Numbered from the stretch's first letter, positions 4,458 to 28,656 are shown. The stretch is 64,000 nt of DNA from Candidatus Cloacimonadales bacterium (GCA_963678315.1 OY782781.1:1152001-1216000); one strand, 5' to 3'. Program-made: numbers and translations. The notes: generated from the sequence alone by a model not told the origin.

Positions 4458-4726
4458 GAAGTTTGCTCATGCTTAGGCAAAAGTTAAACCGAGATATTGA
4501 TTATCCAAATCCCATGATTTCAATCATGGGATTTGGATAATTTACCCTTTCAGGGCTATTCAATTTGTGAACTATTACATGGAGGACAAGCCTCCATGCT
4601 TAGTATATGCCACCCCTTCGGGGTTAATTCCTCAATCCCTGCCTGTCGGTAGACAGGTAACTCCTAACTGCCATATTGCCCATGCACCTCTTGCATAAAA
4701 AGCAGATTTAATGCAGGAGGCCCAAG
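4458..4726 (-). repeat. REP-like mosaic cluster A
   Basis: Perfect 20-bp-stem hairpin 4500-4541; 4571-4625 near-identical to parts of clusters E and F; leader-type hairpin 4684-4726. Confidence 0.85.
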
Positions 4727-11180: not shown

Positions 11181-11196
11181 AGGCACTGAAATTGCA
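11181..11196 (+). promoter_or_regulatory. Putative sigma54 promoter of C25 peptidase 1
   Basis: AGGCAC-TGAAA-TTGCA vs consensus TGGCAC-N5-TTGCW. Confidence 0.6.
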
Positions 11197-11278
11197 TATT
11201 TTAAATCTATATGTAAAAAAGAAGTATATTATTATACTAGGTTCACTTAGCTGTATTGTAGATAATAAGGGGAAATTA

Positions 11279-14200
11279 ATGAAGAAGTTATTCTTTTGTA
11301 TGTTTTGGATACTAATCTTAATAAGAGGGTTAAATTCAGAAATTGTTTCTATAGGATCTTTTGAGAATAGTGTTGATTTGTTGGAGGATACATCTGAATC
11401 AATCTCTTTAGAGATGAAGTTGGGTAGTTATAGCAGAGATAAGCTTTTAATTGCTGGTAAAGAATATTACAGTTTAGCATTGGAAGGTGAAGGACTTATC
11501 CTAGATAAGGGTGCTCCTCAGTTGCCAACATTAGCAAGAAGTTTAATTATAGATGATTATTCTTCATATACTTTAGATCTTGTAGCAAGTGAATTTATTG
11601 ATGTTAATCTTGCAATAGCTCCCTCAAAGGGTGTTTTAACAAGAGATATTGACCCAAATTCTATTCCTTTTGAATTTGGACAAGCTTACAAGAATGATAA
11701 GTTTTATCCTGACTCTATTACCAATCTATCTTCTCCATACATAATGAGGAATCTCAGAGGGCTTACAGTCAAATTTAATCCTATACAATATAATCCAGTT
11801 AGCGGAATAACAAGAATTTACACTTCTATCAAAGTAAAACTTATGAAGTCTAAATCGCAAGGAATTAATATTCTCACTAGAAAGGCTCAAAGAAATAGCT
11901 CATTTGACTTTATTCAAAGAAATCATTTCTTGAACTATAGTGAAGATAGATATGAATCTCTTAGTGAAGTCGGTTCTATGATGATAATTGCACCAGCTAA
12001 CTACTTCAATACTTTACAGCCTTTTGTTAATTGGAAAAGGGATAAAGGAATCAGGGTCAGTTTAATTGATGTTGCAACTATTGGGAATGACAGCAATCTA
12101 ATAAAGACTAGTATTCAAAATTACTACAACAACGATAACAACTTGACTTATGTCTTATTAGTTGGTGATGCAAACCAGCTAGCAAGTCCAAGTGTTAGCG
12201 GTGGGGGATCAGATCCTTCTTATTCATTAGTAGCAGGTGACGACTCTTATCCTGATATTTTGATTGGTAGGTTTTCAGCAGAGAATACTTCTCAATTAGC
12301 TACTCAAGTGGAAAGAACAATTGCCTATGAGAGAGATATAAATAGCACTGTTACTCATCTAAACAAAGCTATAGGTATTGCTTCTTCTCAAGGAGGTGTA
12401 ACTAATGGCGATATGGGCGAATCTGATATTGAACACATGAACTTAATTAGAGAAGATTTGTTAGCCTATAACTATACTAGTGTAGATCGAATTTATGACC
12501 CAAGTGCTAGTGCTTCTAATGTAGCTTCTGCCTTAGAAGAAGGTAGAGCTTTTGTTAATTATGTTGGTCATGGTTCAACTACATCATGGGGGACTACTGG
12601 CTTTTCTAACAGTCATATCAATAATCTCTCTAATGTTGAAAAGCTTCCTTTCATTGTTTCAGTAGCATGTGTAAACGGTAATTTTGTTTCTAACACTTGT
12701 TTTGCAGAAGCATGGCTTAGGGCAACTAACAATGGTGACCCAAGTGGAGCTATAGCTATTTATGCATCATCAATTAATCAAAGCTGGAATTCTCCTATGA
12801 GAGCTCAAGATGAAATAACTGATTTACTGGTTTCAGAACAGCTAACAACTATTGGAGGTCTCTTTTATAGTGGCTCTTGTCAAATGATTGATACTTATGG
12901 AACAGATGGAATTGAGATGTTTAAAACATGGAATATTTTTGGTGACCCTTCATTGCAGGTAAGGACTAATACTCCACAAGAAATTATAGTAGAACATTCA
13001 GGATCAATTAACTCAAATTCTTTAGAATATACTGTAAATACAAATACGGAAAATGCTCTTGTTAGTTTGACTTATGACCATGAAATACTTGGAACAGGCT
13101 ATACAAGTAGCACAGGGTCAATTACTTTGCAGTTAGAAGAACTACCTGTAAACATAGTTGACTTGACACTTACAGTGACTGCTTTTAACAAAAGTTCTTA
13201 TCAAGCACCAGTGACTATGCTTGCATCTGATGGGGCATTTGTTACTATAGAGTCTACTCCTTCAAGTATTCTTTTCAACCATAATGGCGATTTCTCCTTA
13301 TCAATACAAAATTCAGGTAGTCAATCGGCATCAGAACTTACCCTTTCATTAACTTCTTCTAGTCCTTATGTTATCATCAATGATGCTGTTGAAAGAGTAA
13401 TGTCATTGGAAGTTGGAGAAATTATCTCACTTTCACAAGATGCTTTTGATATAAGGATAATCAATAATCCTCCAAATGATGAGATAATAAATTTTAATTT
13501 ATATATTGCGAATAATAATAATAGTTGGGATGATTCATTTAATCTACAAACAATTGCCCCAGACTTTGAAATTGGGACAGTTGATTATTCTGAACTAGTT
13601 GGTAATAGTGATAATATGATACAATCGGGGGAATCTATTAAGTTAGAAGTTCCAGTGCTAAATCATTCAAATTTAACTTTATCTAATATCCCTGTAACAA
13701 TAAATATTAACAGTCTCAATGCTCAAGTATCAGAGAGAACTTTTATTATTGAATCATTGCCCGCTAACAGTAGCCAACAATGTGAGTATTTTCTTTCTAT
13801 AGCAGATTATGTAACAAATAATGCAGAACTAAATGTATCAATCAATGTTGATTATCGTGATTATAGTGAAAGTGATTATTGGACTGCTTATATTAACCTT
13901 AATGCTGAAGATTTCGAGAGTCTAGATTTAGCCTTCTTTAATTGGCAAACAACAGGTGGGGATTATATATTTACTTCTGATGCTTATGATGGTTCTTATT
14001 CTCTGCAATCTCCTGATATTAATAACGATGATGTAACATCAATCAGCACAGAGTATGCATCTACACAAGATGGAAATATTAGTTTCTTTTTAAAAACATC
14101 AACTGAAAGCAATTATGATTTTGTTAGATTTTACATAGATAATGTAGAATATTTAGAAACAAGTGGAAATAGTAACTGGCAAGAATACTCATACCCTGTT

Positions 14201-14533
14201 AGTGAAGGTAATCATGTTTATAAATGGGAGTATGTAAAAGATTATATAGTTAGTAGTTATAATGATTGCTTTTACTTGGATAATATTTCTTTTCCTGGAA
14301 ATAATCTTGATTCGCATATTACTCCAACAACACCAAATAATATAAGTATACAAGTTTCTGAGAATACTACAAGATTAACTTGGGAAGCTTCTGAATATGC
14401 TACATATTATCGCATTCTTGCTAGTGATAATATCAATGGTGATTATGTTATTTTACAGGAAGTGAGCGAAACAAGCTGCACTTTTTCTAATGATAGTAGA
14501 TATAAATTCTTTAAGATTATTGCATCAAATTAA
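11279..14533 (+). CDS. C25 family (gingipain-like) cysteine peptidase 1, FN3-like C-terminus
   Basis: Start reassigned to ATG 11279 (AAGGGG RBS, signal peptide); propeptide, LLVGD, GRFSAE, catalytic YVGHG and VACVNG, IFGDPS. Confidence 0.9.
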   Translation: MKKLFFCMFWILILIRGLNSEIVSIGSFENSVDLLEDTSESISLEMKLGSYSRDKLLIAGKEYYSLALEGEGLILDKGAPQLPTLARSLIIDDYSSYTLDLVASEFIDVNLAIAPSKGVLTRDIDPNSIPFEFGQAYKNDKFYPDSITNLSSPYIMRNLRGLTVKFNPIQYNPVSGITRIYTSIKVKLMKSKSQGINILTRKAQRNSSFDFIQRNHFLNYSEDRYESLSEVGSMMIIAPANYFNTLQPFVNWKRDKGIRVSLIDVATIGNDSNLIKTSIQNYYNNDNNLTYVLLVGDANQLASPSVSGGGSDPSYSLVAGDDSYPDILIGRFSAENTSQLATQVERTIAYERDINSTVTHLNKAIGIASSQGGVTNGDMGESDIEHMNLIREDLLAYNYTSVDRIYDPSASASNVASALEEGRAFVNYVGHGSTTSWGTTGFSNSHINNLSNVEKLPFIVSVACVNGNFVSNTCFAEAWLRATNNGDPSGAIAIYASSINQSWNSPMRAQDEITDLLVSEQLTTIGGLFYSGSCQMIDTYGTDGIEMFKTWNIFGDPSLQVRTNTPQEIIVEHSGSINSNSLEYTVNTNTENALVSLTYDHEILGTGYTSSTGSITLQLEELPVNIVDLTLTVTAFNKSSYQAPVTMLASDGAFVTIESTPSSILFNHNGDFSLSIQNSGSQSASELTLSLTSSSPYVIINDAVERVMSLEVGEIISLSQDAFDIRIINNPPNDEIINFNLYIANNNNSWDDSFNLQTIAPDFEIGTVDYSELVGNSDNMIQSGESIKLEVPVLNHSNLTLSNIPVTININSLNAQVSERTFIIESLPANSSQQCEYFLSIADYVTNNAELNVSINVDYRDYSESDYWTAYINLNAEDFESLDLAFFNWQTTGGDYIFTSDAYDGSYSLQSPDINNDDVTSISTEYASTQDGNISFFLKTSTESNYDFVRFYIDNVEYLETSGNSNWQEYSYPVSEGNHVYKWEYVKDYIVSSYNDCFYLDNISFPGNNLDSHITPTTPNNISIQVSENTTRLTWEASEYATYYRILASDNINGDYVILQEVSETSCTFSNDSRYKFFKIIASN

Positions 14534-14584
14534 CTAATGATTTAATATATATTTTTTATCGTTTATCAATTGACTTTAAGGTCG

Positions 14585-15268
14585 TCCTTACTTGCCACCT
14601 TGAAAAAAAGCCGATTTTTCAAGGAGACCAGTAAGGATGGAGTTAGAAGTGGGGAGTGAGGAGTTGGGACAGGACAAACTGGGAACGCTTTGCCTTTAGT
14701 CCGGCTACTGCCGGATAGCCGGCTAAACACTGGGAACGCCAGCCTCGGTGCTGGCAAAAAGGAATTAGGAGTGTAAGCATCCACCGATAGGTTGAACAGA
14801 GTTCATGCTTACGCAAAGTAAAGTGTTTTTTCGTAGCCAAGGATGGCTACAATCCCAGAGTAGAGGCGTTTAGCATAACGTCTCAAACACTTCTATTATC
14901 ACCCAGGGTTGAAACCCAGGGCTCTTTGTTGATTAACCCTTACAGGGTATCAAAGGATTTGAGATTTAAGCCATCAATCTAGCCTGTCACCGTCGTTGCT
15001 TACGAAGTGGTTTTTTGGGTTGCAAACAACAGTCTTCGCCTGTCACGGTCCCTGCTTGCGAAACATCATTCAAAATGAATGATGTAAGGTATTTCTCTTT
15101 AAACATGCAAGCATGTTTAAAGATGCGCATTCAGGGATGAATGCACCCCAGAAGATAAAGATGCGCATTCAGAAGTGACCGTAATCGGCGAAGACGATTG
15201 AATGCACCCCATAAGAAAGGGAGTGTTAGCATCCAAAAATCCTATGGCAAGCAAGATGCTTGCGCACC
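14585..15268 (+). repeat. REP-like mosaic cluster B (largest, more than 12 hairpin modules)
   Basis: GC-rich intergenic island; modules shared with clusters A, C, D, E, F; 14678-14723 is the exact reverse complement of 51019-51064. Confidence 0.9.
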
Positions 15269-15420
15269 AGATAATGATGACGTTCTGACTAACTTAAAGG
15301 TTGAGCAGGATATTAATTGAATATTGAATTGTAATTAAATATATATAATAAATAATTTTAGCTCTTGAATATTGCATTTCAGTGGTTATTTAGTTTGACA
15401 TAAAATTACTAAATCAATAT

Positions 15421-15436
15421 TGGTATCTATCTTGCA
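15421..15436 (+). promoter_or_regulatory. Putative sigma54 promoter of C25 peptidase 2
   Basis: TGGTAT-CTATC-TTGCA (GG-N10-GC) about 55 nt upstream of ATG. Confidence 0.6.
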
Positions 15437-15489
15437 TATATAAATGTAATAGAAATTAAATAAAATAATATAAACTTAGGAGGAAGCTG

Positions 15490-18400
15490 ATGAAAAGAAG
15501 CTTAGTGATGATCTTAGTACTCATGGTTGCTTTAGTATCTTTGAATTCTGAAGTAGTAAGAGTTGGTACTACAGACAATGACGTGAAATTGATTGAATCT
15601 AATAGTAACCAAACTATTTTGGAGATGGAGCTTGGTTATTTTAACAAGAACCATGTAATTATTAACGGACAAGAATTTAACACATTAGACCTTGCTAAAG
15701 AAGGTAAAACTTATGAAACTGGAGCTCCTGAAGTTCCAACAATGACAAGATCTATTATAATTGATAATTCTTCTAAACCAGAAATGAGAATTATTGAATC
15801 TGAATACACAGAAATCGAATTAGCTGTTGCACCATCAAAAGGTGTGATTACTAGAGATATCGATCCTGCAACAGTTCCTTATACTTTTGGAACAGAATAT
15901 AATAATGATGAATTTTATCCATCAAATATAGCTACTTTGGGCGATGCTTATATTATGAGATCTGTTCGTGGTGTAGCTGTAAGATTCAACCCAATTCAAT
16001 ACAATCCAGCTAGTGGCGTGTTAAGAGTTTACACTTCAATCAAAGTTGCGGTTGCAAATTCTAATGTTACTGGTGAAAATGTTTTAACCAGAGCAGCAAA
16101 GAATGTTGAATCATTCGATTTTATTTATAAAAATCATTTCTTAAACTATGATGAAAACAGATATGCTCCACTTAATGAAATTGGTTCTATCTTAGTTATT
16201 GCTCCTGCTAACTACCATGCAACAATGCAAGATTATGTAGATTGGAAAATCCAAAAAGGTATTCCAACTGAAATGGTTGATGTTGCTACAATAGGTAATA
16301 ACACAACTAATATCAAAAACTATATCCAAGACTACTATGATAATCATGATGATTTTGCTTTTGTACAAATCGCTGGTGATGCTAGCCAAGTTGCTACTTT
16401 AAGTGTTTCTGGTGGTGGTTCTGACCCTTCATACTCATTAGTTGCTGGTAATGACTCTTACCCTGATATCTTCATCGGAAGATTCTCAGCTGAAACAACA
16501 GCTCAATTAGCTACTCAAGTTGAAAGAACAATCGCTTATGAAAGAGATATTAATACAACAGCTACTTATTTGAATAAAGCTACTGGTATTGCTTCATCTC
16601 AAGGTGGTGGTTCACAAGGTGATATGGGCGAATCTGATATTACTCACATGAACTTAATCAGAGATGACTTATTAGGCTATAACTATGTATCAGTTGACCA
16701 AATATATGATCCTTCTGCTTCAGCATCTCAAGTTGCTACTGTTGTTAATCAAGGTAGAGGTTTCATGAATTATGTTGGTCATGGTTCTGATGACTCATGG
16801 GTTACTTCAGGTTTCTCATCTAGTCATGTTAATAACTTAACTAATGTAGATATGCTTCCATTTATCGTTTCTGTTGCTTGTGTGAATGGTAACTTTGTAT
16901 CACAAACTTGTTTTGGTGAAGCTTGGTTAAGAGCTACTCATAATGGCGATCCTACTGGTGCTATGGCTATTTATGCTTCTACTATCAACCAATCATGGGA
17001 TTCTCCTATGAGAGGTGAAGATGAAATCACTGACCTATTGGTATCAGAAGAATTATCTTCTATCGGTGGTTTATATTATAGTGGTTCATGTGAAATGATT
17101 GATGCTTATAATGCAGATGGTATTGAAATGTTTAAAACATGGCATATCTTTGGTGATGCATCTCTTCAAGTAAGAACTGATGTACCTACTGAAATGACTG
17201 TTTCCCATACTGGTATCTTATTTGTTGGTATGAATGAATATTCAATCAATGCTGGTGTAGCTAATGCTTTAGTTTCTGTTACATATAACAATGAAATTTT
17301 AGGTTCAGGATACACAGATGCTTCTGGTAACATTGATCTTTTACTTGAAAACCTTCCTGCAAATGTAGTAGACTTAAATCTTACAATTACAGCTTTAAAT
17401 AAAGTTACATACAATGGTATCATATCTATCACAGCAGCAGAAGGTGCTTATGTAGTTGTTGATGAATATAATCCAGAAATTATGTATAATCATGATGGTA
17501 GCTATACACTTAACATAAAGAATGTTGGTGTTGAAACATCTTCAAACTTAACTGCAACTTTAACTACAGATGATGCTAATGTAACTATCATTGACGGTTC
17601 TGAAGATATCGCTTCTGTTAATGCTGATGAAATAGTGTCTTTACCTGCTGATGCATTTAACTTTACTTTAGCTAATTATCCAGAAAATGGACAAACAATA
17701 GAATTTAATGTGAACATTTCTAATGCAAGCGATGAATGGAACTATCCTGTAAACTTAACAGTTCAAGCTCCTCAATTATCAATTGAAGAAATTACTGCTG
17801 AAGAAGTAGACGGTAATGGTAATGGTAGAATGGATGCTGGTGAAACTTTCGAAATCACTGTTCCTGTACAAAACTATGCTAATGTTCCTGCTGGTGAAAC
17901 TCAAGTTGAATTAACATTCCCACTTGGTTCTGTTGCTGTTGCTGAAAACATTATTACTGAAACTGAAATTCTTCAAAATAACTATAACTTAGTTACTTTC
18001 ACTGCTGTTCTTAGCTCACAAATTCCTGCTGGTACTCAAGTAGACTTCTCTGCTCAAGCTACATTTGAAGGCTATACAGCTACTGGTGAATATACAGACT
18101 TTGTTGGTCTATCTGTTGAAGGCTTCGAAACACAATCTCTTGATGGTTTTGGTTGGGAAACTACAGGTGGAACTTATTCATTCTCAACAGACGCTTATGA
18201 AGGAACATATTCTTTACAGTCTGCTGAAATAGCTAATTCTGCTACAACAACTCTTAGTGTTGATTACGAATCATCTATTGATGGTGAAATTTCCTTCTTT
18301 ATGAAAGTTTCTACAGAAGCAAATTATGATTATGTGAAGTTCTATATTGATAATGTACAAAAAGTTGAACTTTCTGGCGCTGTAAATTGGGCTGAATACA

Positions 18401-19179
18401 GCTACAATGTAGCTGCTGGTGAACATACTTATAAATGGGAATATAGTAAAGACTACATGGTTGCTTCAAACGATGATTGCTTCTATCTAGACCTTGTTAC
18501 TTTCCCTGCTTCAGGTGGTGGTGCGACAGGTAATCCAGAAATTGCTATTGATGTTACTGATTACGATTTCGGAATGATTCAAGTTATTCCTGAAGAAGAC
18601 ACTTCAGTTTCTTTAGATTTAGTAATTGAAAATACTGGTGATGGAATGTCTTTGGGTACTATTGAAATTCCAGCTCCTTTCTATGCAAGAAATGACAATG
18701 AAGAATTAGTTAACTCTAAATCATTTACAGTTGATGCTGGCTCAACTACAACTATCGAGCTTGTATTTGCTCCAACTACAGCTGATGTATTTAATGAAGT
18801 TGCTACAGTTACAACTGATGATGTTGATAACCCTACATTCGAACTAGCTCTTGCTGGTGAATCTATTGGAACTCCTAATGCTGGTAATGATTTAGTTCCT
18901 GCTGTTACTTCTTTAGAAGGTAACTATCCTAACCCATTCAACCCTGAAACTACTATTAAATATGGTTTAAATAAGGGTGGAAAAGTTAGAATCGATATCT
19001 ATAACCTTCTTGGTCAAAAAGTGAAAACTCTTGTTAATGAAGACCAGTCTGCTGGTTATCATTCTGTTGTATGGAACGGTAAAGATAACAACAATAGAAA
19101 TGTTGCTTCAGGCGTATATTTCTACAAAATGAAATCTGTTGGCTATAATAAAACAGCTAAAATGATTCTTATGAAATAG
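15490..19179 (+). CDS. C25 family (gingipain-like) cysteine peptidase 2 with T9SS-type-A/FlgD-Ig C-terminal domain
   Basis: AGGAGG RBS, signal peptide, YVGHG and VACVNG, Ig-like domains, NYPNPFNPETTI...KMILMK. Confidence 0.92.
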   Translation: MKRSLVMILVLMVALVSLNSEVVRVGTTDNDVKLIESNSNQTILEMELGYFNKNHVIINGQEFNTLDLAKEGKTYETGAPEVPTMTRSIIIDNSSKPEMRIIESEYTEIELAVAPSKGVITRDIDPATVPYTFGTEYNNDEFYPSNIATLGDAYIMRSVRGVAVRFNPIQYNPASGVLRVYTSIKVAVANSNVTGENVLTRAAKNVESFDFIYKNHFLNYDENRYAPLNEIGSILVIAPANYHATMQDYVDWKIQKGIPTEMVDVATIGNNTTNIKNYIQDYYDNHDDFAFVQIAGDASQVATLSVSGGGSDPSYSLVAGNDSYPDIFIGRFSAETTAQLATQVERTIAYERDINTTATYLNKATGIASSQGGGSQGDMGESDITHMNLIRDDLLGYNYVSVDQIYDPSASASQVATVVNQGRGFMNYVGHGSDDSWVTSGFSSSHVNNLTNVDMLPFIVSVACVNGNFVSQTCFGEAWLRATHNGDPTGAMAIYASTINQSWDSPMRGEDEITDLLVSEELSSIGGLYYSGSCEMIDAYNADGIEMFKTWHIFGDASLQVRTDVPTEMTVSHTGILFVGMNEYSINAGVANALVSVTYNNEILGSGYTDASGNIDLLLENLPANVVDLNLTITALNKVTYNGIISITAAEGAYVVVDEYNPEIMYNHDGSYTLNIKNVGVETSSNLTATLTTDDANVTIIDGSEDIASVNADEIVSLPADAFNFTLANYPENGQTIEFNVNISNASDEWNYPVNLTVQAPQLSIEEITAEEVDGNGNGRMDAGETFEITVPVQNYANVPAGETQVELTFPLGSVAVAENIITETEILQNNYNLVTFTAVLSSQIPAGTQVDFSAQATFEGYTATGEYTDFVGLSVEGFETQSLDGFGWETTGGTYSFSTDAYEGTYSLQSAEIANSATTTLSVDYESSIDGEISFFMKVSTEANYDYVKFYIDNVQKVELSGAVNWAEYSYNVAAGEHTYKWEYSKDYMVASNDDCFYLDLVTFPASGGGATGNPEIAIDVTDYDFGMIQVIPEEDTSVSLDLVIENTGDGMSLGTIEIPAPFYARNDNEELVNSKSFTVDAGSTTTIELVFAPTTADVFNEVATVTTDDVDNPTFELALAGESIGTPNAGNDLVPAVTSLEGNYPNPFNPETTIKYGLNKGGKVRIDIYNLLGQKVKTLVNEDQSAGYHSVVWNGKDNNNRNVASGVYFYKMKSVGYNKTAKMILMK

Positions 19180-19203
19180 TATCATTTGAACTATAGATAA
19201 ATT

Positions 19204-19240
19204 AAAGCCTACAACTCTCGAGTTGTAGGCTTTTCCTTTT
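19204..19240 (+). terminator. Intrinsic terminator
   Basis: AAAGCCTACAACTC/GAGTTGTAGGCTTT stem plus T-rich tail. Confidence 0.85.
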
Positions 19241-19253
19241 GGTAAAAGCAAAC

Positions 19254-19390
19254 TGGGATTGTAAGCTTCCCAGCTTACGAAAGTGTTTAGGATTGTAAGC
19301 TACAGTCTTCGCCTGTCACAGTCCCAGCTTACGAATCTATATAGCGTAAGCATGAACTTTGTTCAGCCTATCGGCGGATGCTTACACTCC
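19254..19390. repeat. REP-like mosaic cluster C
   Basis: Tandem empty and filled GGATTGTAAGCT...TCCCAGCTTACGA units, then inverted GGAGTGTAAGCATCC module. Confidence 0.85.
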
Positions 19391-19425
19391 ATCTCTGGCA
19401 ACGAAAAGGGTTTGAATTAATTAAT

Positions 19426-19453
19426 TTGACATATATTGGGAGATAATTATAAT
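19426..19453 (+). promoter_or_regulatory. Sigma70-type promoter
   Basis: TTGACA-N16-TATAAT. Confidence 0.65.
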
Positions 19454-19479
19454 ATGATAAACTTCTAAATGGAGGAAAT

Positions 19480-20877
19480 ATGGCAACTAAAAAAGTAATT
19501 AAAGAAACAAAAACCAGAAACTTCATAGGTTATAAAAGAGAACACGCAGAGTTCCACAATGCTTATACTATATCTTCAGTTGAGAAAGATATCAAATTCT
19601 TAAAAGTTGTTTATGGAGATGATTTCCCATTATCAGAAGAAAATGTAGATGCTATCTTGATTGAGAAATTAAGGAAATTAGGTAAAGAAATTTATTTCTT
19701 TATTTCATCATTAACATTCGGGACTACTCCCCAGATTTATATAAAACGTAAATATGAATTTATCAAAAATACAATTCCTGTGAATGAAAGATACCTTTTC
19801 TTTTTAGCATGGAATGGCTTAACTAATAATGATTCCTTCAAAAAGCTATTAAGACAAAAGTTTGGTTTAGAACAGTTCTATTCTGATGTATGTCCGCAAA
19901 ATATACCAAGTATAGGATCAGTCCTCACTCGCTATAGATCTAAGTTTGTTTTGGCTATGGATATGGCTCAAAACCCAGATGGGACTAAGAGAACTCAAGG
20001 ACGCCAACTTGACGATGGTTCAGGATTGACCATGAGAGAGAAGATAGTCTGGTTACCGAATGGTAAATCAATTCCTCTTTATCCAAATGCCTATGTACCA
20101 CTTAATCAAACTCAGGTTATATTGGTTAGGCATGGCAAGTCTATTCATGAATCTGGTGGTGATAACCCTGAATTTGTTGGTTCTGGCTATTGGGATTCTT
20201 GGAAAGAGAATCGAAGAGTATCTAAGTCTATTGGGAATTCATTGAAAGAAGATGGAATTCAAACAGCAAAGAATTTAGGTCAAGATTTCAAGGTTGCAGT
20301 AGACACACTTCAAAAAGAAGGATATTTATTCTGGCCTTACGCTAAAGAAAACCCTATAACTGTCTATGGAAGTGAATCAGAGAATACAGAGCAAACTTCT
20401 CGTTACTTTTTGGCAGGAGCAAACTATACAAATATAAATTTCCAAGCAATATATGGATTAAACTCACAGAAATACGGAGCTCTTACTCATAAATACAAAA
20501 ATGAAGTATTTGAGAAAGTTGTAGAAATCTATGGTGAAACATGGGCAGGTACAAAAGAAAGTAAGTTAGCAAAAGCAAAGAAGATGTTCAAAAATAGATT
20601 TTATCATTTCCCAGAAGGGGAGACCTTGATAGAAGCTGATTGGCGCATTGCTCATAGCTTCGTTCAATTGCTCAAAGAAAACCAAGGTAAAAGAGTGCTT
20701 TTATGCGACCATTCTGGTGCTATAAGAGTGTTCGAAGCTATCATAAGGACATTAGATTTTGCTGATTATAGTTCATTGAAGGAAGGACAAGATTCTATCA
20801 TTGCTCTTATCTATCAACCAGGACTGAATGTTCGTTACGATTACTTACAACGTAAAGATTTTAAACTTAGAAAATAA
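19480..20877 (+). CDS. Histidine phosphatase (phosphoglycerate mutase-like) family protein with long N-terminal extension
   Basis: ILVRHGKS at about aa 215, FPEGET, VLLCDHSGAIR. Confidence 0.75.
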   Translation: MATKKVIKETKTRNFIGYKREHAEFHNAYTISSVEKDIKFLKVVYGDDFPLSEENVDAILIEKLRKLGKEIYFFISSLTFGTTPQIYIKRKYEFIKNTIPVNERYLFFLAWNGLTNNDSFKKLLRQKFGLEQFYSDVCPQNIPSIGSVLTRYRSKFVLAMDMAQNPDGTKRTQGRQLDDGSGLTMREKIVWLPNGKSIPLYPNAYVPLNQTQVILVRHGKSIHESGGDNPEFVGSGYWDSWKENRRVSKSIGNSLKEDGIQTAKNLGQDFKVAVDTLQKEGYLFWPYAKENPITVYGSESENTEQTSRYFLAGANYTNINFQAIYGLNSQKYGALTHKYKNEVFEKVVEIYGETWAGTKESKLAKAKKMFKNRFYHFPEGETLIEADWRIAHSFVQLLKENQGKRVLLCDHSGAIRVFEAIIRTLDFADYSSLKEGQDSIIALIYQPGLNVRYDYLQRKDFKLRK

Positions 20878-20885
20878 GGATATAA

Positions 20886-21845
20886 ATGCTTAAAACACAT
20901 TACTATCGTGAAGATAATGATTTCCAAGAGAAGATTAGTGAACTTCTCGGAAAACAACATAGAATAACTATAAGTAAAGACATACCTCAAGATACAGAAG
21001 TTCTTATCTTGGGGTATCCTTCTAAAGATAAACTAGATTCACTTCCTAAGCTAAAAGCTCTTGTCATTCCCTTTGCAGGAATACCTGCTTCTACCAAAGA
21101 ATTAATGAAGCAGTATCCAGATTTAAAAGTCTATAATATCCATCATAATCATAGAGTCGCTGCTGAAATGGTTATAGCTATGCTTCTAACAGGTGTTAAG
21201 CATATAATACCTGCTGATAAAGACTTTAGAAAGCATGATTGGAGTATTCGTTATGGAGAGAACCCTTCTCTGCTTTTATATCAAAAGAAAGCTCTAATTT
21301 GTGGTTATGGGCATATCGGTAAATTAGTTGCTGAATTCTTGAAGGTCTTCGGTGTGAAAGTTGATTATATTCGAAGGAATGAAAGAGACCCTAGCATTGG
21401 CTGTTACAAGCTAATAGATTTACCTGTGATAGTTGAAGAATATGATTTTGTAATTAATGTTCTTCCTGCTACTAGTGAAACTGAGAGTGTTTTCAATAAA
21501 CAAGTCTTCTCTAAAATGAAGAAATCTAGCTTCTTTGTTAATATTGGTCGAGCTTCTACTGTTGATGAACAAGCATTATATGATGTTCTCAAGAATAAGA
21601 AAATACTTGGGGCTGCTCTTGATGTATGGTATAATTACCCTAAAACAATAGAAGAGAGAAGCAATACCAAACCGACTAACCTTCCTTTTCATGAACTAGA
21701 TAATTTGATTATGAGTCCACACCGAGGAGGAGGACTTGGTATGCAGGAAAACGAAACATTTAGATTGCAAGAATTGGCAGACTTGCTTCAGAAGATAGAA
21801 AAAGGTGATCAGGTAAGAGCAATAAACTTAGAGCTTGGATATTAA
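20886..21845 (+). CDS. D-isomer-specific 2-hydroxyacid dehydrogenase
   Basis: GYGHIG, FVNIGRA, ALDVWYNYP, MSPHRGG. Confidence 0.9.
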   Translation: MLKTHYYREDNDFQEKISELLGKQHRITISKDIPQDTEVLILGYPSKDKLDSLPKLKALVIPFAGIPASTKELMKQYPDLKVYNIHHNHRVAAEMVIAMLLTGVKHIIPADKDFRKHDWSIRYGENPSLLLYQKKALICGYGHIGKLVAEFLKVFGVKVDYIRRNERDPSIGCYKLIDLPVIVEEYDFVINVLPATSETESVFNKQVFSKMKKSSFFVNIGRASTVDEQALYDVLKNKKILGAALDVWYNYPKTIEERSNTKPTNLPFHELDNLIMSPHRGGGLGMQENETFRLQELADLLQKIEKGDQVRAINLELGY

Positions 21846-22016
21846 ATAATCAAGTTTATAAAAAAATATATTTACACAATTAATTAAAGTATCACAATTT
21901 ACATGATTTAGAATTATCTCTAATTCAAAAAAGGAACATTTGCAAGTAATGTTGATATTATTCAACTATAACTTCCATATTGTTAATGAGCTTATAATGG
22001 CAGAGGTTAGAACATT

Positions 22017-24155
22017 ATGGTTAGAAAAACTTTAAAGAGATTTTATATTTATATCATTTCATGGATATTGCTAAGTATTATTCTAATAGTTGTAAATCAA
22101 TCTTCCTTTATAAAAGAGGTTGAGAATAGGACTCTAGATTATAGATTTAGTAATTATTCCTTAGCTGAACAAGCTGATACAAATATTGTCTTGATTTCTA
22201 TAGACGATCAAAGCTTGAGGTATGCTAATGAAAAGGGCGTATTTTGGCCTTGGCCTAGAGAGTTTTATGCTTTAGCAACTAACTACTTAAGTAATTGTGG
22301 TGCAGAACAAGTTATATTTGATATTCAGTTTAATGAGCCGGATTATAATAGGGGAGATATTGATTCTGAAGCTAGTGATAACTATTTTGCCAACGTAATA
22401 AAGAACAGTGGAAATGTTATATTATCTAGTCAAGCTCTATTAGGAGAAAGTAAGATAGATGTTGAAACAGGAATTAATACCCTCAATATTGAAGGTATTA
22501 ATATTCCTTTAACAGATAACTTTAACCAGTTGAGCCTTCCTATAAAGAAATTCAGAGAGAATTCTTTGGGGGTTGGAATTATTAACATTTCACCAGATGA
22601 TGATGGTGTTGTGAGAAGAGTTCCTTTATTCTACAAAATTAATGGCCAATATTACCCGCAGTTAGCTTTTCTATCATTTCTAAAATCTTCACAGAATAAT
22701 ACATTGCAATACAAACATCAAAGCATTGCTACTGACAAAATAGATATACCAATTCTGCATGAACAAGATTATCTGATTAATTGGTATGGAAATGGTGGAG
22801 TAGAAGGTGTTTTTAAATATATCCCATATAGCAATCTTATTCAGTCTGCTGTTGCAACTTCAAGCGATAAGGAAGCTGTTCTTAATCCTGAATTGTTTAA
22901 AGGTAAGACAGTAATTATTGGAGCAACAGCTCCAGGACTCTTTGACTTGAAGACCTCACCAGTTACAAAGGTCTTGCCTGGTATGGAGATTTGGGCAACA
23001 ATCATAAGTAACTTGCGCAATGGTCATTTCATTAAAACGGTTCCAGGTCATCTTGTTAATATCTCAATAATATTATTAGTTGCACTCACTATAATTTCTT
23101 TATTGCATCAAAGAGCTGTAATTTCTCACTTATTCTTGTTGATTGAGATTGTTGTTGTAAATATGCTTATAATTGGTTTGTGGACCCATTATAGGTATTT
23201 ATTGCCATGGGTAATCTATATTATTACAATTGTTTTAACTTATCTGACTGTCTTATTAGTAAAATACCTAGCTGAAGGTAGAGACAAGCAGAAACTGAAA
23301 AAGATATTTACAAGATATATTCACCCTGACCTGGTTAACATTCTCATTAATAATTCAAAAGACTTCGAGTTAGGTGGTAAGGAAGTAGAAGCGACTATTC
23401 TCTTTACGGATATTTATGATTTTACTACTTATTCAGAAAATAAAACTCCTAAAGAACTTGTTACTGAGCTTAACAAATATTTCGAAACTATTACAGATAT
23501 TATCTTGAAGAATCAAGGTATGTTAGATAAGTTTACTGGTGATGGACTAATGGCTCTTTTTGGCTCTCCTTTAATAAGCCTTGATCATGCTTATCTGGCA
23601 TGTAAAGTTGCTTTAGAACACCGTTCTTATACAGAGAGTTTGAGCCCTGATGATGATGGCTATTATTTCAATAAAATGACAAGGATTGGTATTAATAGTG
23701 GTCTTGTTGTGGTAGGGAACATTGGTTCTTCAAAGCGAACAGATTACACTGCTATTGGCGATGCAGTAAACTTATCAGCAAGAATAGAAGGCGTTAACAA
23801 GCTATTTAAAACTTCTATCATTATTGGAGAATCCACTCAGAAGCTGATAAAAGATAGGTTTATATGTCGTGAATTAGATGTTCTGAAAGTTAAAGGTAAG
23901 AATGAGCCTACAAAGATATTTGAACTTATTGACGAGCTTGGTAAGAAAGATAAAGATGAACTTATTGCAAGCTATGAAGAAGCTTTAATGTTGTATAAGC
24001 AAGGACATTTCTTGCAGGCTAAGAATAAATTTGAAGATTTATATAATAGTAAATATAGTGATTATCCTTCACAGGTAATGGCAAGTAGATGCCAGTTTTT
24101 AATAGATAATCCTCCTAAAAATTGGGAAGGAATATTCACTCTAAAAGTTAAATAG
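22017..24155 (+). CDS. CHASE2-domain class III adenylate/guanylate cyclase
   Basis: IDDQS, WPWPR, DDDGVVRR, 3 TM helices, FTDIYDFT, DKFTGDG, YTAIGDAVNLSARIEG. Confidence 0.93.
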   Translation: MVRKTLKRFYIYIISWILLSIILIVVNQSSFIKEVENRTLDYRFSNYSLAEQADTNIVLISIDDQSLRYANEKGVFWPWPREFYALATNYLSNCGAEQVIFDIQFNEPDYNRGDIDSEASDNYFANVIKNSGNVILSSQALLGESKIDVETGINTLNIEGINIPLTDNFNQLSLPIKKFRENSLGVGIINISPDDDGVVRRVPLFYKINGQYYPQLAFLSFLKSSQNNTLQYKHQSIATDKIDIPILHEQDYLINWYGNGGVEGVFKYIPYSNLIQSAVATSSDKEAVLNPELFKGKTVIIGATAPGLFDLKTSPVTKVLPGMEIWATIISNLRNGHFIKTVPGHLVNISIILLVALTIISLLHQRAVISHLFLLIEIVVVNMLIIGLWTHYRYLLPWVIYIITIVLTYLTVLLVKYLAEGRDKQKLKKIFTRYIHPDLVNILINNSKDFELGGKEVEATILFTDIYDFTTYSENKTPKELVTELNKYFETITDIILKNQGMLDKFTGDGLMALFGSPLISLDHAYLACKVALEHRSYTESLSPDDDGYYFNKMTRIGINSGLVVVGNIGSSKRTDYTAIGDAVNLSARIEGVNKLFKTSIIIGESTQKLIKDRFICRELDVLKVKGKNEPTKIFELIDELGKKDKDELIASYEEALMLYKQGHFLQAKNKFEDLYNSKYSDYPSQVMASRCQFLIDNPPKNWEGIFTLKVK

Positions 24156-24163
24156 GAGTAATT

Positions 24164-25405
24164 ATGAGGTTCTTGTTATTGTTGTTTTGTTTGTTATGTT
24201 TTGTATTGGTTTCTGCAGAAACATTAGATATAAAAAGGGATAAAACCCCTCTACGAGAAGGAGCTGGATCTTGGTATGAAGTAATCGAGTTAATTCAGAA
24301 AGGTGAGCGAGTTGAAACTGTTGCTTACTCAGATGATAATCAGATTACTAATCAGTGGTTAAAAGTTAAGTACAATTCTAAAGTTGGTTTTATTTCTGTT
24401 ATATCAACCAAAGAACTTAAGCCTAAAAAAGACATTTTTTCTAATTTTGCTGAGGGTAAGCCATCTACTATTGCGACTAAGCATGGTGTTTCAGCTGGTG
24501 TAAAAGGATTTGGAGAAAGATTCTGTTCTACATTTAAAGTTAGCCCAAAATTCATTGAGTATGCTCAAAGCTATAATATAAATCCTAGAGACTATAAAAA
24601 GTTTAAACTAGACACTTACAAAGGCTTTTGGATACGTAAGAATAGGAAGAAAGTTGATTTAGGTGATAAATTTCATGAAGAATATTTCACAGAGTCAGAA
24701 CGAGGATTAGGTTTAGGTATTGCATCTGTTATATCTCAGCAAGGATTAGTTAAAAACAAAAAGCTTCAAGATTACGTTAATTTTGTGGGATTACAGCTTG
24801 TCGAAGCTTTTGATTTAAGTGAGATAGAATTCAAGTTCTTTATATTGGATATTGATAATCCTAACGCTTATGCAACTACAGGAGGAGTAGTCTTTATTAC
24901 TAAAGGAATGCTTAACTTATGCCAAAATGAAGCAGAATTATCTCTGATTCTCGCTCATGAAATAGCACATGTTGCCTATAATCATGGTATGCAAGAAACT
25001 CTAGCAAGAAAAACAGATATATTAGCTGATTCTAGCTTTGATGAATTAGACAAGGAATTTGGGAACTCAACTAGTCGTTATAAAGACCTAGAAGCAGAAC
25101 TTGAAGAAGATGCCTTTAAAATATATGAAACCTTGATTCATGGTAGATTAGATGCCTATGAGTTAGAAGCTGATCAGATGGCGATATTAGTTACTGCTCG
25201 TGCTGGATATAATGCTAATTTAATGCCGAAAGTTCTTGACAGACTAATCAATAATAGCGTAAAATCAAATAATGAGCACTACCGACCTGATATTCTTGTT
25301 ACACGCAAAAAGCAAGTAGAAAAGTTCTTGAAAAGTAGACCTTTACCTAGTAACCTAATGATTCATCAAGAAAGATTTGATAAATTTATACAATTACTAG
25401 ACTAA
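24164..25405 (+). CDS. Secreted SH3-like + M48 metallopeptidase
   Basis: Signal peptide, LREGAG...WLKV (SH3b-like), PNAYA..GG, LAHEIAH, ELEAD. Confidence 0.85.
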   Translation: MRFLLLLFCLLCFVLVSAETLDIKRDKTPLREGAGSWYEVIELIQKGERVETVAYSDDNQITNQWLKVKYNSKVGFISVISTKELKPKKDIFSNFAEGKPSTIATKHGVSAGVKGFGERFCSTFKVSPKFIEYAQSYNINPRDYKKFKLDTYKGFWIRKNRKKVDLGDKFHEEYFTESERGLGLGIASVISQQGLVKNKKLQDYVNFVGLQLVEAFDLSEIEFKFFILDIDNPNAYATTGGVVFITKGMLNLCQNEAELSLILAHEIAHVAYNHGMQETLARKTDILADSSFDELDKEFGNSTSRYKDLEAELEEDAFKIYETLIHGRLDAYELEADQMAILVTARAGYNANLMPKVLDRLINNSVKSNNEHYRPDILVTRKKQVEKFLKSRPLPSNLMIHQERFDKFIQLLD

Positions 25406-25471
25406 TGGTTATATAAAGAATGGATTCATTATTAGGAGGAAGTGATATAGATTAATTAAAAAAGGACTCTT

Positions 25472-26662
25472 ATGAATAGAATAATGATATTTATCGCTTT
25501 GTTAAGTTTGTGTGCAATCTTACAATCACAAAGCCTCGCTGATATGAACTTTGGAGATTCAGCTTCTTTGGATATAATGACATGGAATATAGAATGGTTT
25601 CCTAAAAATGGTCAGACTACAGTTGATTCCGTAGCAACAGTCTTAGAAGCTCTAGATATGGATATTTATGCTATTCAGGAAGTGGATGATACACTCGCAT
25701 TTAGGGAAATGGTTAATGAGCTAGATGATTATTCTTGCTTCTTTGAATCAAGTTATTTTGCAGGTCTTGCTTATATCTATAAGACAGATGAAATACAGAT
25801 TCATTATATTGAAGAAATATATACTTCTTACCCTTATTGGAGACCTTTCCCACGTTCTCCAGTAGTAATGAAATTTCTCTACAATGGTCAGATTTTCTAT
25901 GTGATGAACAATCATTTCAAGGCAATGGGGGATGGACATTTAAACCTAAGTGATGAATGGGATGAAGAGACCAGGCGTTATGATGCTAGTCTTCTTATCA
26001 AAGAGTATATAGATGATGATTTACCTAATGCTAATGTGATAGTATTAGGTGATTTAAATGATATTCTTACTGATGAAGAAGATGATAATGTTTTCCAATG
26101 TTTTTTGGATGATGAAGAGAATTACCTCTTTGCAGATTACGAAATAGCTACTAGCTCTAGTTCAGAATGGTCCTATCCAGGTTGGCCTTCTCATCTGGAC
26201 CATATACTTGTAACTAACGAGGTTTTTACTCCCAACAGTAATGTAATTACTCAAACCCAAACATTGAAGATTTATGAGTATATGCAAAGCTTTTCTCAAT
26301 ATGACTCCTACATTTCAGATCATTTACCTGTAGCAATTAAGATAATTGCTGCTACAGATAACGATGATTCTCAAGTTTGTACTAACGCTTCTTTCAATCT
26401 AACAAACTATCCAAATCCATTCAATCCTGAAACTACAATATCCTTTAATAATCCTAGTTCTGGTCATGTTAAGTTGACTATTTTCAACATTAAGGGGCAA
26501 GTTCTTGCAACAATTATCAATAGCAAGCTAGCTAAGGGACAACATAATTTTGTTTGGAATGGAAAGGATAGCAATGGGAATCAAGTTTCATCAAATATCT
26601 ACTTTGCAAAAGTTGAAAGTAAGGACGCTTCAGAGATTCATAAAATAATATTATTAAAATAA
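25472..26662 (+). CDS. Secreted endonuclease/exonuclease/phosphatase with T9SS-type-A/FlgD-Ig CTD
   Basis: TWNIEWF, IQEV, GDLN, LDHIL, SDHLPV; NYPNPFNP...KIILLK. Confidence 0.88.
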   Translation: MNRIMIFIALLSLCAILQSQSLADMNFGDSASLDIMTWNIEWFPKNGQTTVDSVATVLEALDMDIYAIQEVDDTLAFREMVNELDDYSCFFESSYFAGLAYIYKTDEIQIHYIEEIYTSYPYWRPFPRSPVVMKFLYNGQIFYVMNNHFKAMGDGHLNLSDEWDEETRRYDASLLIKEYIDDDLPNANVIVLGDLNDILTDEEDDNVFQCFLDDEENYLFADYEIATSSSSEWSYPGWPSHLDHILVTNEVFTPNSNVITQTQTLKIYEYMQSFSQYDSYISDHLPVAIKIIAATDNDDSQVCTNASFNLTNYPNPFNPETTISFNNPSSGHVKLTIFNIKGQVLATIINSKLAKGQHNFVWNGKDSNGNQVSSNIYFAKVESKDASEIHKIILLK

Positions 26663-26834
26663 GATTACTTAAGAATATTTGCTTTTGAGAGGATATATTA
26701 TAAAGACATTCTTATTTGCTAAAGCATATATTTATAAATGATTATTCTCAACGGGGAATGTTGAGTAATTTAGCTTTGTAATCAATGAAATTTATTTAAG
26801 AAGAACTTAAATTCAGTCTTAATTGAGTTTTTTA

Positions 26835-26863
26835 TTGACAATAAGCAAAATTAACTTTATATT
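26835..26863 (+). promoter_or_regulatory. Sigma70-type promoter of oxidative-stress operon
   Basis: TTGACA-N17-TATATT. Confidence 0.65.
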
Positions 26864-26895
26864 ATTTATATAAAAAAACTAATTAGGAGGAAATT

Positions 26896-27276
26896 ATGAC
26901 AAAATTAAGAGAAATATACCATTGCCCTAAATGTGGTAACGTGGTTGAATTAGTATATCCTGGTGCTCCAGCACTTGTTTGCTGTGGAGAACCAATGAAT
27001 TTATTAGAAGGTAAAACAGCAGATTCTGCAACTGAAAAGCATGTTCCTGTTGTTGAAGAAAAAGACGGCGGTGTATTAGTAACAGTTGGTTCAACTCTTC
27101 ACCCTATGACTGAAGAACATCACATAGCTTTTATTGAAGTATTAACAAAAGATATGGTTTATAGAGCTGAATTAGATAAAACTGGTGAACCAAAGGCATT
27201 CTTCAATGTTAAGAAAGCTGACGTAATTGAAGTAAGAGAATACTGTAACCTTCATGGTTTATGGAAAAAACTATAA
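26896..27276 (+). CDS. dfx: Desulfoferrodoxin (2Fe superoxide reductase)
   Basis: CPKCGN...CCGEPM, EKHVP, HPM..EHHI, YCNLHGLW. Confidence 0.96.
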   Translation: MTKLREIYHCPKCGNVVELVYPGAPALVCCGEPMNLLEGKTADSATEKHVPVVEEKDGGVLVTVGSTLHPMTEEHHIAFIEVLTKDMVYRAELDKTGEPKAFFNVKKADVIEVREYCNLHGLWKKL

Positions 27277-27291
27277 AAAAGAGGTAAAATA

Positions 27292-27882
27292 ATGAGTTTA
27301 AAAGGTACAAAAACTGCAGAAAATTTGATGAAAGCATTTGCTGGTGAATCACAAGCTAAAAATAGATACACTTATGCTGCTAAAACAGCTAAAAAAGAAG
27401 GTTTTGAACAAATTTCAGCTCTCTTTATGGAAACAGCATTAAATGAAGAAGAACATGCTAAATTATTTATGAAACACATGGTTAATAATGGTCTTGAAGG
27501 TCAAGCAATTGAAATCACTGCTGCTTACCCTGCAGCTTGGGCTCAAAAAGATACATTACAAAATTTACAATACGCTGCTGATGGCGAACATGAAGAATGG
27601 GATGAATTATATCCTGAATTCGCTAAAGTTGCTGATGAAGAAGGTTTCTCAGCTATTGCAGCAACTTTCAGACTTATTGCAAAGATTGAAAAACATCATG
27701 AAGAAAGATACAGAAAACTATTCAATGCTGTTAAAGCTCATGAAATGTTTAAAAAAGATGGTAAAGTATTCTGGAAATGCAGAAAATGTGGACATATTCA
27801 TGAAGGTCTTGAAGCTCCTGAAAAATGCCCTACATGTGCACATCCACAAGGATACTTTGAAGTTTTGTGTGAAAACTATTAA
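27292..27882 (+). CDS. rbr: Rubrerythrin
   Basis: [27 protein letters not shown]...CPTC. Confidence 0.96.
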
Positions 27883-27903
27883 TTGATAACTGAGGAGTTA
27901 TTT

Positions 27904-28044
27904 ATGAGTAAGTATCAATGTTTAGCTTGTGGATATATATACGACCCAGCAGAACACAATAATGTTGCTTTCGAAGACTTACCTGAAGACTACATCTGTC
28001 CAGAATGTGGTGTTGGTAAGGATATGTTCGAAGTAGTTGATTAA
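27904..28044 (+). CDS. Rubredoxin (46 aa, below ORF-track cutoff)
   Basis: [55 protein letters not shown]. Confidence 0.95.
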
Positions 28045-28048
28045 TATT

Positions 28049-28077
28049 AAAAAAGGAGCGCTTAGCTCCTTTTTTTC
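28049..28077 (+). terminator. Intrinsic terminator
   Basis: AAAAGGAGC/GCTCCTTTT stem plus T-run. Confidence 0.85.
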
Positions 28078-28173
28078 CTTTTTTAAGAATTTGATATAAG
28101 CCTATAAAATATATTATACTTCTTAAAAAAATATAAATGAGTATTGTCTTACTCATTCTTTAATGGAGTTAAA

Positions 28174-28626
28174 ATGACAAAAGAAGAATTTAATAAAATT
28201 ATTGATTTCGCTATCTTAAGAGAACAAGAAGCAGTGGACTTTTATGTAGAATTACAAAATCATGCTAAGTTCAAAGACCAAGCACAGATGATGAAAGACT
28301 TTGAGAACATGGAAAGAGGACATATTATTGTACTTAAAAATCTTAAAGAAAAGGGTAAAGTGTTCGTTGATGAAAGTAAAGCAACGTCTATGAAAATTAG
28401 CAATTATGTTATAGCTGATTATGATAAAGATGATTTAACTTATGAGAATATCATTCTAATTGGCATCAAGAGAGAAGAAAGAGCATATAAACTCTACAAA
28501 GATCTAGCCAATAACTTCGATGATGAAGATGTGAAAAAAGCATTTAATCACCTTGCAAGCCAAGAAATTGGCCATAGAAATTTATTCTCTGATTTATATG
28601 ATAAGCATGTTTTAAAAGATAACTAA
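28174..28626 (+). CDS. Ferritin-like / rubrerythrin-family diiron protein
   Basis: GGAG RBS before ATG 28174; AILREQEA..FY, ERGH, REERA..LY, EIGH. Confidence 0.85.
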   Translation: MTKEEFNKIIDFAILREQEAVDFYVELQNHAKFKDQAQMMKDFENMERGHIIVLKNLKEKGKVFVDESKATSMKISNYVIADYDKDDLTYENIILIGIKREERAYKLYKDLANNFDDEDVKKAFNHLASQEIGHRNLFSDLYDKHVLKDN

Positions 28627-28656
28627 ATTCTGCTATAAAACTAAAGATATACTTTT

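Follow-up and report, generated by a model that had tools for sequence, protein, structure and literature searches.

In Escherichia coli and its relatives, REPtrons of the REP/BIME type are described in passages of PMC3333891 and PMC2817692 as high-copy extragenic imperfect palindromes with a conserved head, as Y1 HUH genes bordered by variable numbers of repeats, and as mosaics with linkers and locus-specific tandem amplification. In the REPIN-RAYT systems of Pseudomonas and, in portions of PMC2817692, in multi-RAYT Stenotrophomonas, every RAYT has a REP family of its own and one genome can contain several RAYT/REP pairs. For E. coli TnpA-REP, parts of PMC3333891 report cleavage and rejoining at REP and linker sites, together with a proposal of excision, reintegration and local amplification. 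IS200/IS605 elements follow, in the same partial account, a single-strand, strand-specific logic without terminal inverted repeats or target duplication. In Neisseria, most CGTC-head dRS3 repeats lie in large clusters (sections of PMC3733652). The literature located comprised REP/RAYT papers; within the portions covered, ordered multi-family arrays and this organism group were not found.

The present locus was analysed in a window of 64,000 nucleotides (the whole stretch of DNA examined), corresponding to bases 1152001-1216000 of a genome that is 2,988,751 bases long, forms a single contig and has 32.8% G+C. Among the genes of the window are C25 peptidases carrying type IX secretion sorting tails; the gene content points to the FCB group, and these peptidases, the tails and the RAYT relatives found in Cloacimonadota place the genome near Cloacimonadota. 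Five GC-rich intergenic islands (A, B, D, E and F) had been described by the earlier note, and all five were present where reported with the layout reported: in 5/5 islands the leader hairpin lies 19-108 nt past the stop codon of the gene that the earlier note had named, and it is followed by GGAGTTA/GGAGTGA-type heptamers and then by modules common to several islands. The features of the window are as follows.

14581-14637, + strand: island B leader hairpin (family F1), two 23-nt arms and a 7-nt loop, HMM 68 bits
14638-14672, + strand: island B G-rich heptamer tract (GGAGTTA/GAAGTGG/GGAGTGA type), between leader and first module
14678-14758, + strand: island B REP modules F12 and F3 (superfamily S1), head ACTGGGAACGC then GC hairpin
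14768-14857, + strand: island B F2 (GGAGTGTAAGC... hairpin) then F0 (GTAGCC hairpin, head last), z -3.9 and -4.7
14860-15273, + strand: island B distal part, with GTAGAG..CGTCTC hairpin, F14, F0, palindromes, F47 and F19-like end
4458-4726, - strand: island A, with F6 variant leader, F25, part of F11 (4545-4626) and F5 (4503-4530)
4687-4722, - strand: island A CTGCAT variant leader (family F6), weak fold, z -1.3
19255-19391, - strand: leaderless array of F2, then F0, F0; missing from the earlier note
28726-29088, + strand: island D, with leader (28726-28781), heptamers, F3, F3, F4, F2, F5
50659-51144, - strand: island E, with leader (51094-51144, z -7.4), heptamers, F12, F11 (191 nt), F2, F0
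57836-57877, strand not given: solo variant leader F6; also missing from the earlier note
63449-63857, + strand: island F, with leader (63449-63506, z -5.7), heptamers, F11, F24, F33, F29

The leader of island B folds as DNA at -13.8 kcal/mol (z -5.2 against shuffles). Folded as single-stranded DNA, the four typical leaders of the window gave z values of -5.2, -3.1, -5.7 and -7.4, and the CTGCAT variant of island A gave only -1.3 in the same test. In island B, F2 and F0 form an inverted pair as judged by head position, the head ACTGGGAACGC of the F12 and F3 modules also flanks RAYT-like genes, and the distal part contains two F0 copies in minority orientation and two perfect palindromes. Island B sits between two paralogous C25 peptidase genes (11192-14533 and 15490-19179), and a Pfam type IX secretion sorting tail was found only in the second paralogue. 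Between the rubrerythrin-like gene and the island D leader there is a GC stem with a T run (28657-28692), which looks like the terminator of that gene, separate from the leader.

Short-read contigs of three DNA runs (X1, X2, X4) break at the arrays in the part of the window inspected (14000-29500). At island B the contigs end at the leader (14606) and start again beyond the array, at 15247 for X1 and at 15327 and 15330 for X2 and X4. At island D the gap opens at 28783 or 28810 and closes at 28972-28998. That the restart positions differ hints at variation of the distal array edge. The depth of repeat contigs was raised at the leaderless array (19255-19391). Runs X2-X8 contain DNA in which the flanks are 98-99% identical. 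Two runs labelled as other organisms contain genes of this bacterium at ~98-99% identity, and oligo-dT/poly-A RNA libraries under the species label of one such run hint that the bacterium lives with a eukaryote.

For the genome-wide census, a crude gene map was made (2187 ORFs of at least 90 aa, covering 88.8% of the genome) and all 1016 intergenic regions (328,371 nt) were compared all-against-all; 89,911 intergenic bases belonged to sequence occurring at least four times. Repeats were cut where alignment ends pile up and the pieces were clustered, which gave 51 families with at least 7 members, and a whole-genome profile (HMM) search located 1474 non-overlapping module copies of ~50 families. 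Hairpin modules make up ~3% of the 2.99-Mb genome and are extragenic, with just 85/1474 copies lying more than 80% inside crude ORFs. When copies within 80 nt of each other were joined, 445 clusters were obtained, 167 of them single and 207 with at least 3 modules. The copy numbers of nine families are listed below.

F1: 125 copies, leader
F6: 63 copies, variant leader
F0: 156 copies
F2: 132 copies
F3: 100 copies
F4: 88 copies
F5: 65 copies
F11: 51 copies
F12: 40 copies

A BLASTN comparison of the islands with the genome, which had been suggested as a check, returned 1982 matches with sharp copy-number steps at module borders, and this repeat pattern is far beyond chance. The view of the islands as assemblies from a shared kit of discrete hairpin modules held across the genome, but the accompanying statement that the modules come from many unrelated families was too strong, several families having one head (ACTGGGAACGC or close variants) and being grouped into few superfamilies.

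Other repeats were observed in the same census. An AT-rich composite of ~220-250 nt (F9-F27-F13-F38-F10) recurs as a unit, for example at genome positions 2107290, 2232717, 2779399 and 1929567, with two copies 94% identical, and stands directly after the leader in five arrays. A long tandem array of ~11 F16 units with a period of ~92 nt occupies 1942863-1944146, and from 1708398 onward there are six repeats of F50-F2-F0-F14-F4, in which F14 and F4 are in minority orientation. An IS21-type pair (IstA-like integrase-core protein and IstB ATPase) was found at 1112580-1114801, and a 70-nt IS21-type end sequence is identical at four places (1112580-1114801 and near 259960, 438295 and 2589411), each abutting a repeat array; family F35 is probably an IS21-type IS end and not a REP module.

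Order and orientation were tabulated genome-wide in 87 arrays with one polarised leader and at least 3 modules. Relative to the leader, each family has a single orientation in these arrays (F4 55:1, F2 40:4, F8 33:0, F11 30:1, F3 28:4, F0 26:3, F5 26:0, F12 20:1). Among orientable modules as a whole, 768/833 (92%) share the orientation of their array. The order is near-fixed and runs from the heptamers through F12, F3, F39, F4, F34, F14, F19, F7, F11, F2, F0, F5 and F18 to F10, with a pair-order consistency of 0.913 over 310 pair observations, compared with 0.668 +/- 0.018 after shuffling (maximum 0.726 in 1000 shuffles). The distal ends are varied, with 26 different last modules among the 87 arrays.

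In arrays oriented by their non-leader modules the leader took the first place in 63, an internal one in 16 and the last in 1, and the variant leader F6 was first in 8, internal in 1 and last in 2; since the orientation convention was learnt from leader arrays, these counts are a measure of consistency and not an independent test. The heptamers lay on the side of array extension at 75 leaders and on the opposite side at 7 where both could be scored, and all heptamer runs within 40 nt of a leader (65/65) were on the expected side and strand. The number of heptamer units after the leader ranges from 0 to 17, and the hairpin loop itself is oriented (66 vs 17, with 30 unclear). The tabulation bore out the earlier description of the leader as the constant terminal piece of polar and ordered strings.

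The same description had the islands read in the direction of the preceding gene, which is true of the window (5/5) and not of the genome: of 113 polarised leaders, 56 turn their outer side to the 3' end of a gene and 57 to a 5' end, so that the pattern in the window is not general. Polarity linked to genes was rejected on these counts and on tandem gene pairs, where 36 arrays were co-directional and 30 anti-directional. Polarity linked to replication was also rejected, the array polarity being 44:49 on one replichore and 44:48 on the other, with an origin near 0.73 Mb and a terminus near 2.0 Mb by GC skew. Because neither genes nor replication set the layout, a polar and ordered layout needs a rule intrinsic to the DNA.

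Nine PF01797 (Y1) matches above the cut-off were found in the whole genome, all outside the window. The absence of a transposase from the window noted earlier is therefore correct for Y1 genes within it and does not extend to the genome. The three Y1 proteins of 150-152 aa scored 63-70 bits and passed the IS200/IS605 NCBIfam cut-off of 55. The six longer proteins have 173-188 aa, and the REP-associated tyrosine transposase model was the best match in 5/5 scanned, at 62-66 bits, which is below the 80-bit curated cut-off of NF047646; these five are 52-60% identical to each other. H115, H117 and Y175 (HUH motif and tyrosine) were invariant in the 8 proteins aligned, the sixth longer gene (1115148-1115669) standing outside both the alignment and the scan. 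Six of the genes are classed as RAYT-like and three as IS200-like. The proposed link to HUH Y1 (RAYT/IS200-like) enzymes proved right, and RAYT/IS200 TnpA genes flanked by the same modules, which it had been suggested to look for, were found elsewhere in the genome: 8/9 Y1 genes are flanked by repeats of their own, either modules or local repeats, and six share the head ACTGGGAACGC or its shortened GGAACGC form. The genes and their flanks are as follows.

599k Y1 gene: flanked by F14/F26/F5, direct
795k Y1 gene: low-copy local REPs with head GGAACGC, inverted
1104k Y1 gene: flanked by F5/F17, direct
1107k Y1 gene: flanked by F11/F20/F33/F24/F41/F29, inverted
1110k Y1 gene: flanked by ACTGGGAACGC-head REPs, inverted
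1115k Y1 gene: flanked by ACTGGGAACGC-head REPs, inverted
1121k RAYT-like gene (genome 1121495-1122016): flanked by F0/F2, direct
1125k Y1 gene: low-copy local REPs with head AGGAACGC, direct
1688k Y1 gene: flanked by F39-type REPs with head ACTGGGAACGC, direct

Since Y1 genes outside the window are flanked by their own module families, the modules are read as REP/RAYT-type elements arranged in BIME-like mosaics, and it is likely that the modules of the islands are REP-type elements with cognate Y1 genes. The 1110k gene has a complete leader-heptamer-REP string before it and five inverted REPs after it. None of the nine Y1 genes has leaders on both sides, and one leader adjoins the 1110k gene; the leader is a transposase-orphan long palindrome with no cognate enzyme among the nine. 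A 22-kb segment (genome 1104220-1126245), ~26-48 kb before the window start, contains six of the nine Y1 genes. In the same region dnaA (1105056-1106402) is bracketed by two IS200-like genes, and the GC-skew origin lies ~375 kb away.

The main head is ACTGGGAACGC, which together with a GC hairpin occurs 142 times in the genome compared with 0 for a control word, and GTAG-like starts are found only in the GTAGAG..CGTCTC and GTAGCC hairpins. In the two closest RAYT homologues (54-56% identity, Cloacimonadota MAGs, among 379 relatives in the species collection), hairpins with ACTGGGAACGC/ACTGGGGAAGC heads adjoin the gene, and inverted repeats of at least 14 nt flank 13/40 homologues examined, several with GGGA.CGC-like heads. 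The 11-nt head is present in 12-55 copies in each of 7/7 genomes of the sister genus (control word 0-1), in 0-7 copies in the other genus of the family and in at most 4 copies in the other genomes of the order, with the control word at 0-2 copies per genome across relatives; Y1 matches number 3-14 in each of 11/11 family genomes. This distribution shows the head travelling with the RAYT clade. In sister genome G001 it is other modules that stand ahead of the REPs, and not a leader or heptamers; the module HMMs gave 0 matches on 80 RAYT-homologue loci.

The leader is specific to this lineage. It was found in 0/30 relatives by BLAST, and a strict pattern gave 0 matches in a collection of 185,579 species genomes. 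A metagenome scan with a looser core pattern returned 115 stretches, and all 98 loci with an HMM match fitted the core hairpin only (14-36 bits), with 0 matches to other module families. These candidates were rejected at 18/24 inspected loci as an unrelated element. That element (L018, L019, L022, L024, L027 and others) occurs on freshwater-type contigs of 43-60% G+C, shares with the leader just the core CCTTGAAAAA..TTTTTCAAGG hairpin and has conserved flanks of its own.

Among the other known systems, IS200/IS605 elements have gene-less derivatives, and the intergenic mosaic elements of Neisseria, like the arrays here, combine numerous kinds of short repeat with one small repeat in common at their boundaries. 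Three of the Y1 genes here pass the IS200/IS605 model, but they are single-copy and lie among short-module arrays instead of between one left and one right end; a single-strand, strand-specific logic like that of IS200/IS605 would give one orientation per target strand. The features of REPtrons were found in this genome, namely Y1 genes with HUH and tyrosine, flanking repeats, headed palindromes and high-copy extragenic position. The differences from REPtrons, as far as the partial accounts of these go, are that the head is ACTGGGAACGC or a variant and not GT(A/G)G, that there are nine Y1 genes instead of one, that at least 7 module families are mixed within single arrays, that the arrays are co-oriented and ordered whereas REP/iREP pairs alternate, and that a transposase-orphan long hairpin with a heptamer tract stands at one end. 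The published heads GT(A/G)G and CGTC are not the main head here, and the alternating orientation of BIMEs was not seen, only some pairs being inverted by head position (F2 with F0, and ACTGGGA-head REPs with F19). The F2+F0 pair and the leader, which folds as a long hairpin, resemble the inverted doublets of REPINs folding into long hairpins, but REPINs are, in the portions covered, mostly dispersed single-family doublets, while here the concatenated families differ and follow one order, and a stretch of 22 kb contains six Y1 genes. The Neisseria mosaics differ in heads and enzymes, and a terminal leader or fixed family order is not described in the sections of PMC3733652 covered. Four features are new in this genome: the sequence of the head, the Y1 genes in being so many and so clustered, the presence of several families within a single co-oriented, ordered array, and the enzyme-orphan terminal hairpin with its heptamer microsatellite.

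Among the explanations considered, we give roughly an even chance to the islands being BIME-like REP mosaics moved by Y1 enzymes, in which composites are copied and then elaborated locally; for the origin of polarity and order, a copied composite core with local REP turnover is likewise our first choice, held about as strongly as it is doubted. Each element, a short imperfect palindrome often with a conserved head, would act as single-stranded DNA, and several paralogous Y1 (HUH) transposases encoded elsewhere would cut, copy and rejoin the elements. The leader with its slippage-prone heptamer tail would form the terminal piece of a composite unit built as leader, heptamers, ACTGGGA-head REPs, F2(/F0), F5. 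Such composites would be copied to many intergenic sites in either direction, and would be elaborated in place at module borders by REP insertion, by tandem amplification and precise loss, and by exchange between co-linear arrays. Because border-acting processes keep order and orientation, the strings could differ yet obey one grammar. The analysis shows the grammar, the Y1 genes and their flanking by particular module families; it is probably the Y1 enzymes that move the modules, and order may be kept in this way.

Comparison between arrays gave 31,472 alignments, of which 29,736 cover one module or less. This speaks for independent modules, as do the copy-number steps and the module borders, which stay precise next to any neighbour (the first base of F2, for instance, is constant). 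Composite units are favoured by the similar linkers of a given module pair and by 444 alignments that span at least 3 modules, the highest-ranked between separate loci being 80-88% identical and the near-identical ones being local duplications. They are also favoured by the strings F4-F2-F5 and F34-F14-F5, which recur and are duplicated in tandem, and by whole units recurring in tandem. Many arrays are a single family in tandem. The distances of F4 and F2 co-vary between arrays (Mantel r 0.39, p 0.003), again in favour of composites, but this was the only one of 12 family pairs with significant same-array co-variation (p < 0.05; leader-F4 r 0.08), which speaks for independent modules. Since co-inheritance of modules within arrays is weak, simple copying of whole composites is not enough. 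The points counted against the copied-composite reading are that no enzyme can be assigned to the leader, that the RAYT-like scores are 62-66 bits against a cut-off of 80, that the heads are not the published GTAG/CGTC, and that 92% of modules are co-oriented, unlike the alternating classical BIMEs.

The second explanation, for which we have clearly less confidence, is accretion directed by the leader. The leader and heptamers would here be a strand-specific entry site for the REP cassettes of several Y1 enzymes, and arrays would grow from the leader end, the order recording the succession of family activity; we regard both parts as doubtful. In CRISPR arrays insertion is leader-proximal, and in integrons cassettes are inserted next to attI. 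The likeness is an analogy only, in the constant end-piece, the ordered discrete units and hairpins that would be single-stranded like attC sites; here the units are repeated across arrays and non-coding, there are ~125 dispersed 'leaders', and membership of either system is not claimed. We know of no acquisition gene adjacent to the leaders.

Several observations argue for accretion, including the terminal position of the leader (63:16:1) and the heptamers on the array side (65/65). In addition, 11 different families can directly follow the leader and heptamers, the F2 head (GGAGTG) resembles the heptamer unit, and ~20 leaders are annotated as solo and would be empty sites, though some have weak modules behind them. 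Heptamer remnants between internal modules are all forward (24 linkers, 0 reverse); they stand mostly just 5' of ACTGGGA-head modules, however, and may belong to these and not to the leader. A strict order of superfamilies is confined to leader arrays (S1 before S2 22:4, S1 before S3 20:1, S2 before S3 11:1, compared with 7:9, 2:1 and 4:3 for the same pairs without a leader), which fits a leader-directed process as well as copied composites.

The divergence of module copies speaks both for and against growth from the leader. Listed by order it is 0.05 for F12, 0.18 for F3, 0.17 for F4, 0.055 for F11, 0.10 for F2, 0.21 for F0 and 0.14 for F5. The least diverged families (F12 and F11) are nearest the leader, and copies in leader arrays are more uniform than elsewhere (F12 0.060/0.162, F11 0.068/0.186, F2 0.099/0.148, and also F4), but divergence does not rise steadily with rank, and an age gradient along the array was rejected. 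Accretion is further opposed by the leaderless arrays, which are still co-oriented (34/401 modules in the minority). Their pair order is weaker (126 concordant and 59 discordant, 0.68 compared with 0.50 +/- 0.04 shuffled), and no order of superfamilies is seen in them. Of the oriented leaderless arrays with at least 3 modules, 62/71 have no leader within 400 nt and just 4 have a heptamer upstream, and in the sister genus this REP head has spread although neither leader nor heptamers accompany it. If the leader and heptamers were after all a dedicated strand-specific acquisition site, at which several Y1 transposases deposit hairpin cassettes successively, a possibility we hold only tentatively, the arrays would form a dispersed system for the accretion of mobile hairpins, comparable to integrons or CRISPR, and each of the ~125 sites would be a small polar record of REP family activity.

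It is unlikely that every array derives by decay or deletion from a single long, composite, MITE-like element whose modules are not independently mobile. In favour of such an element are the fixed orientation and order, the similar linkers of given module pairs, the multi-module alignments, with 80-88% identity in the highest-ranked between separate loci, and the recurring string F4-F2-F5. Against these stand the copy numbers of the modules, which differ widely (about 12 to 156) and change sharply at borders, the precise and not ragged borders, the 26 different last modules among 87 arrays, the mostly absent co-phylogeny, the flanking of particular Y1 genes by particular families and the many arrays of one family in tandem. 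The leaders have hairpin arms as a DDE-transposon MITE would, but inspection by eye of 38 solo or near-solo leaders showed no target-site duplication.

An RNA role, with the arrays serving as functional RNA or as signals in transcription (stabilisers of 3' UTRs, terminators, small RNAs) and the layout set by the transcript of the upstream gene, is unlikely and by far the least probable reading, for although the five window leaders all come after a stop codon and background statements in PMC3733652 mention REPs of other bacteria as proposed mRNA stabilisers or transcription terminators, there is no genome-wide tie to gene direction (56 vs 57; tandem pairs 36 vs 30), Rfam gave no family at gathering score in the window and three chance-level matches only in a lax scan of island B, and 0 terminator-like sites were found in 14400-15500 with 0.5 expected.

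In practical terms, short-read assemblies of this organism are interrupted by the arrays at each island. The assembly and spread of REP/BIME elements is an open question that has been studied mostly in a few proteobacteria with one or few RAYTs. Outside that phylum, the present genome is a much richer experiment of nature, with nine Y1 genes, at least 7 families with a new head, a strict grammar and a terminal element without an enzyme. Should the grammar be a product of targeting rules, it would reveal the site choice of single-strand transposases and the way mosaics are built, and if it reflects the copying of composites, whole BIME-like units would be mobile.
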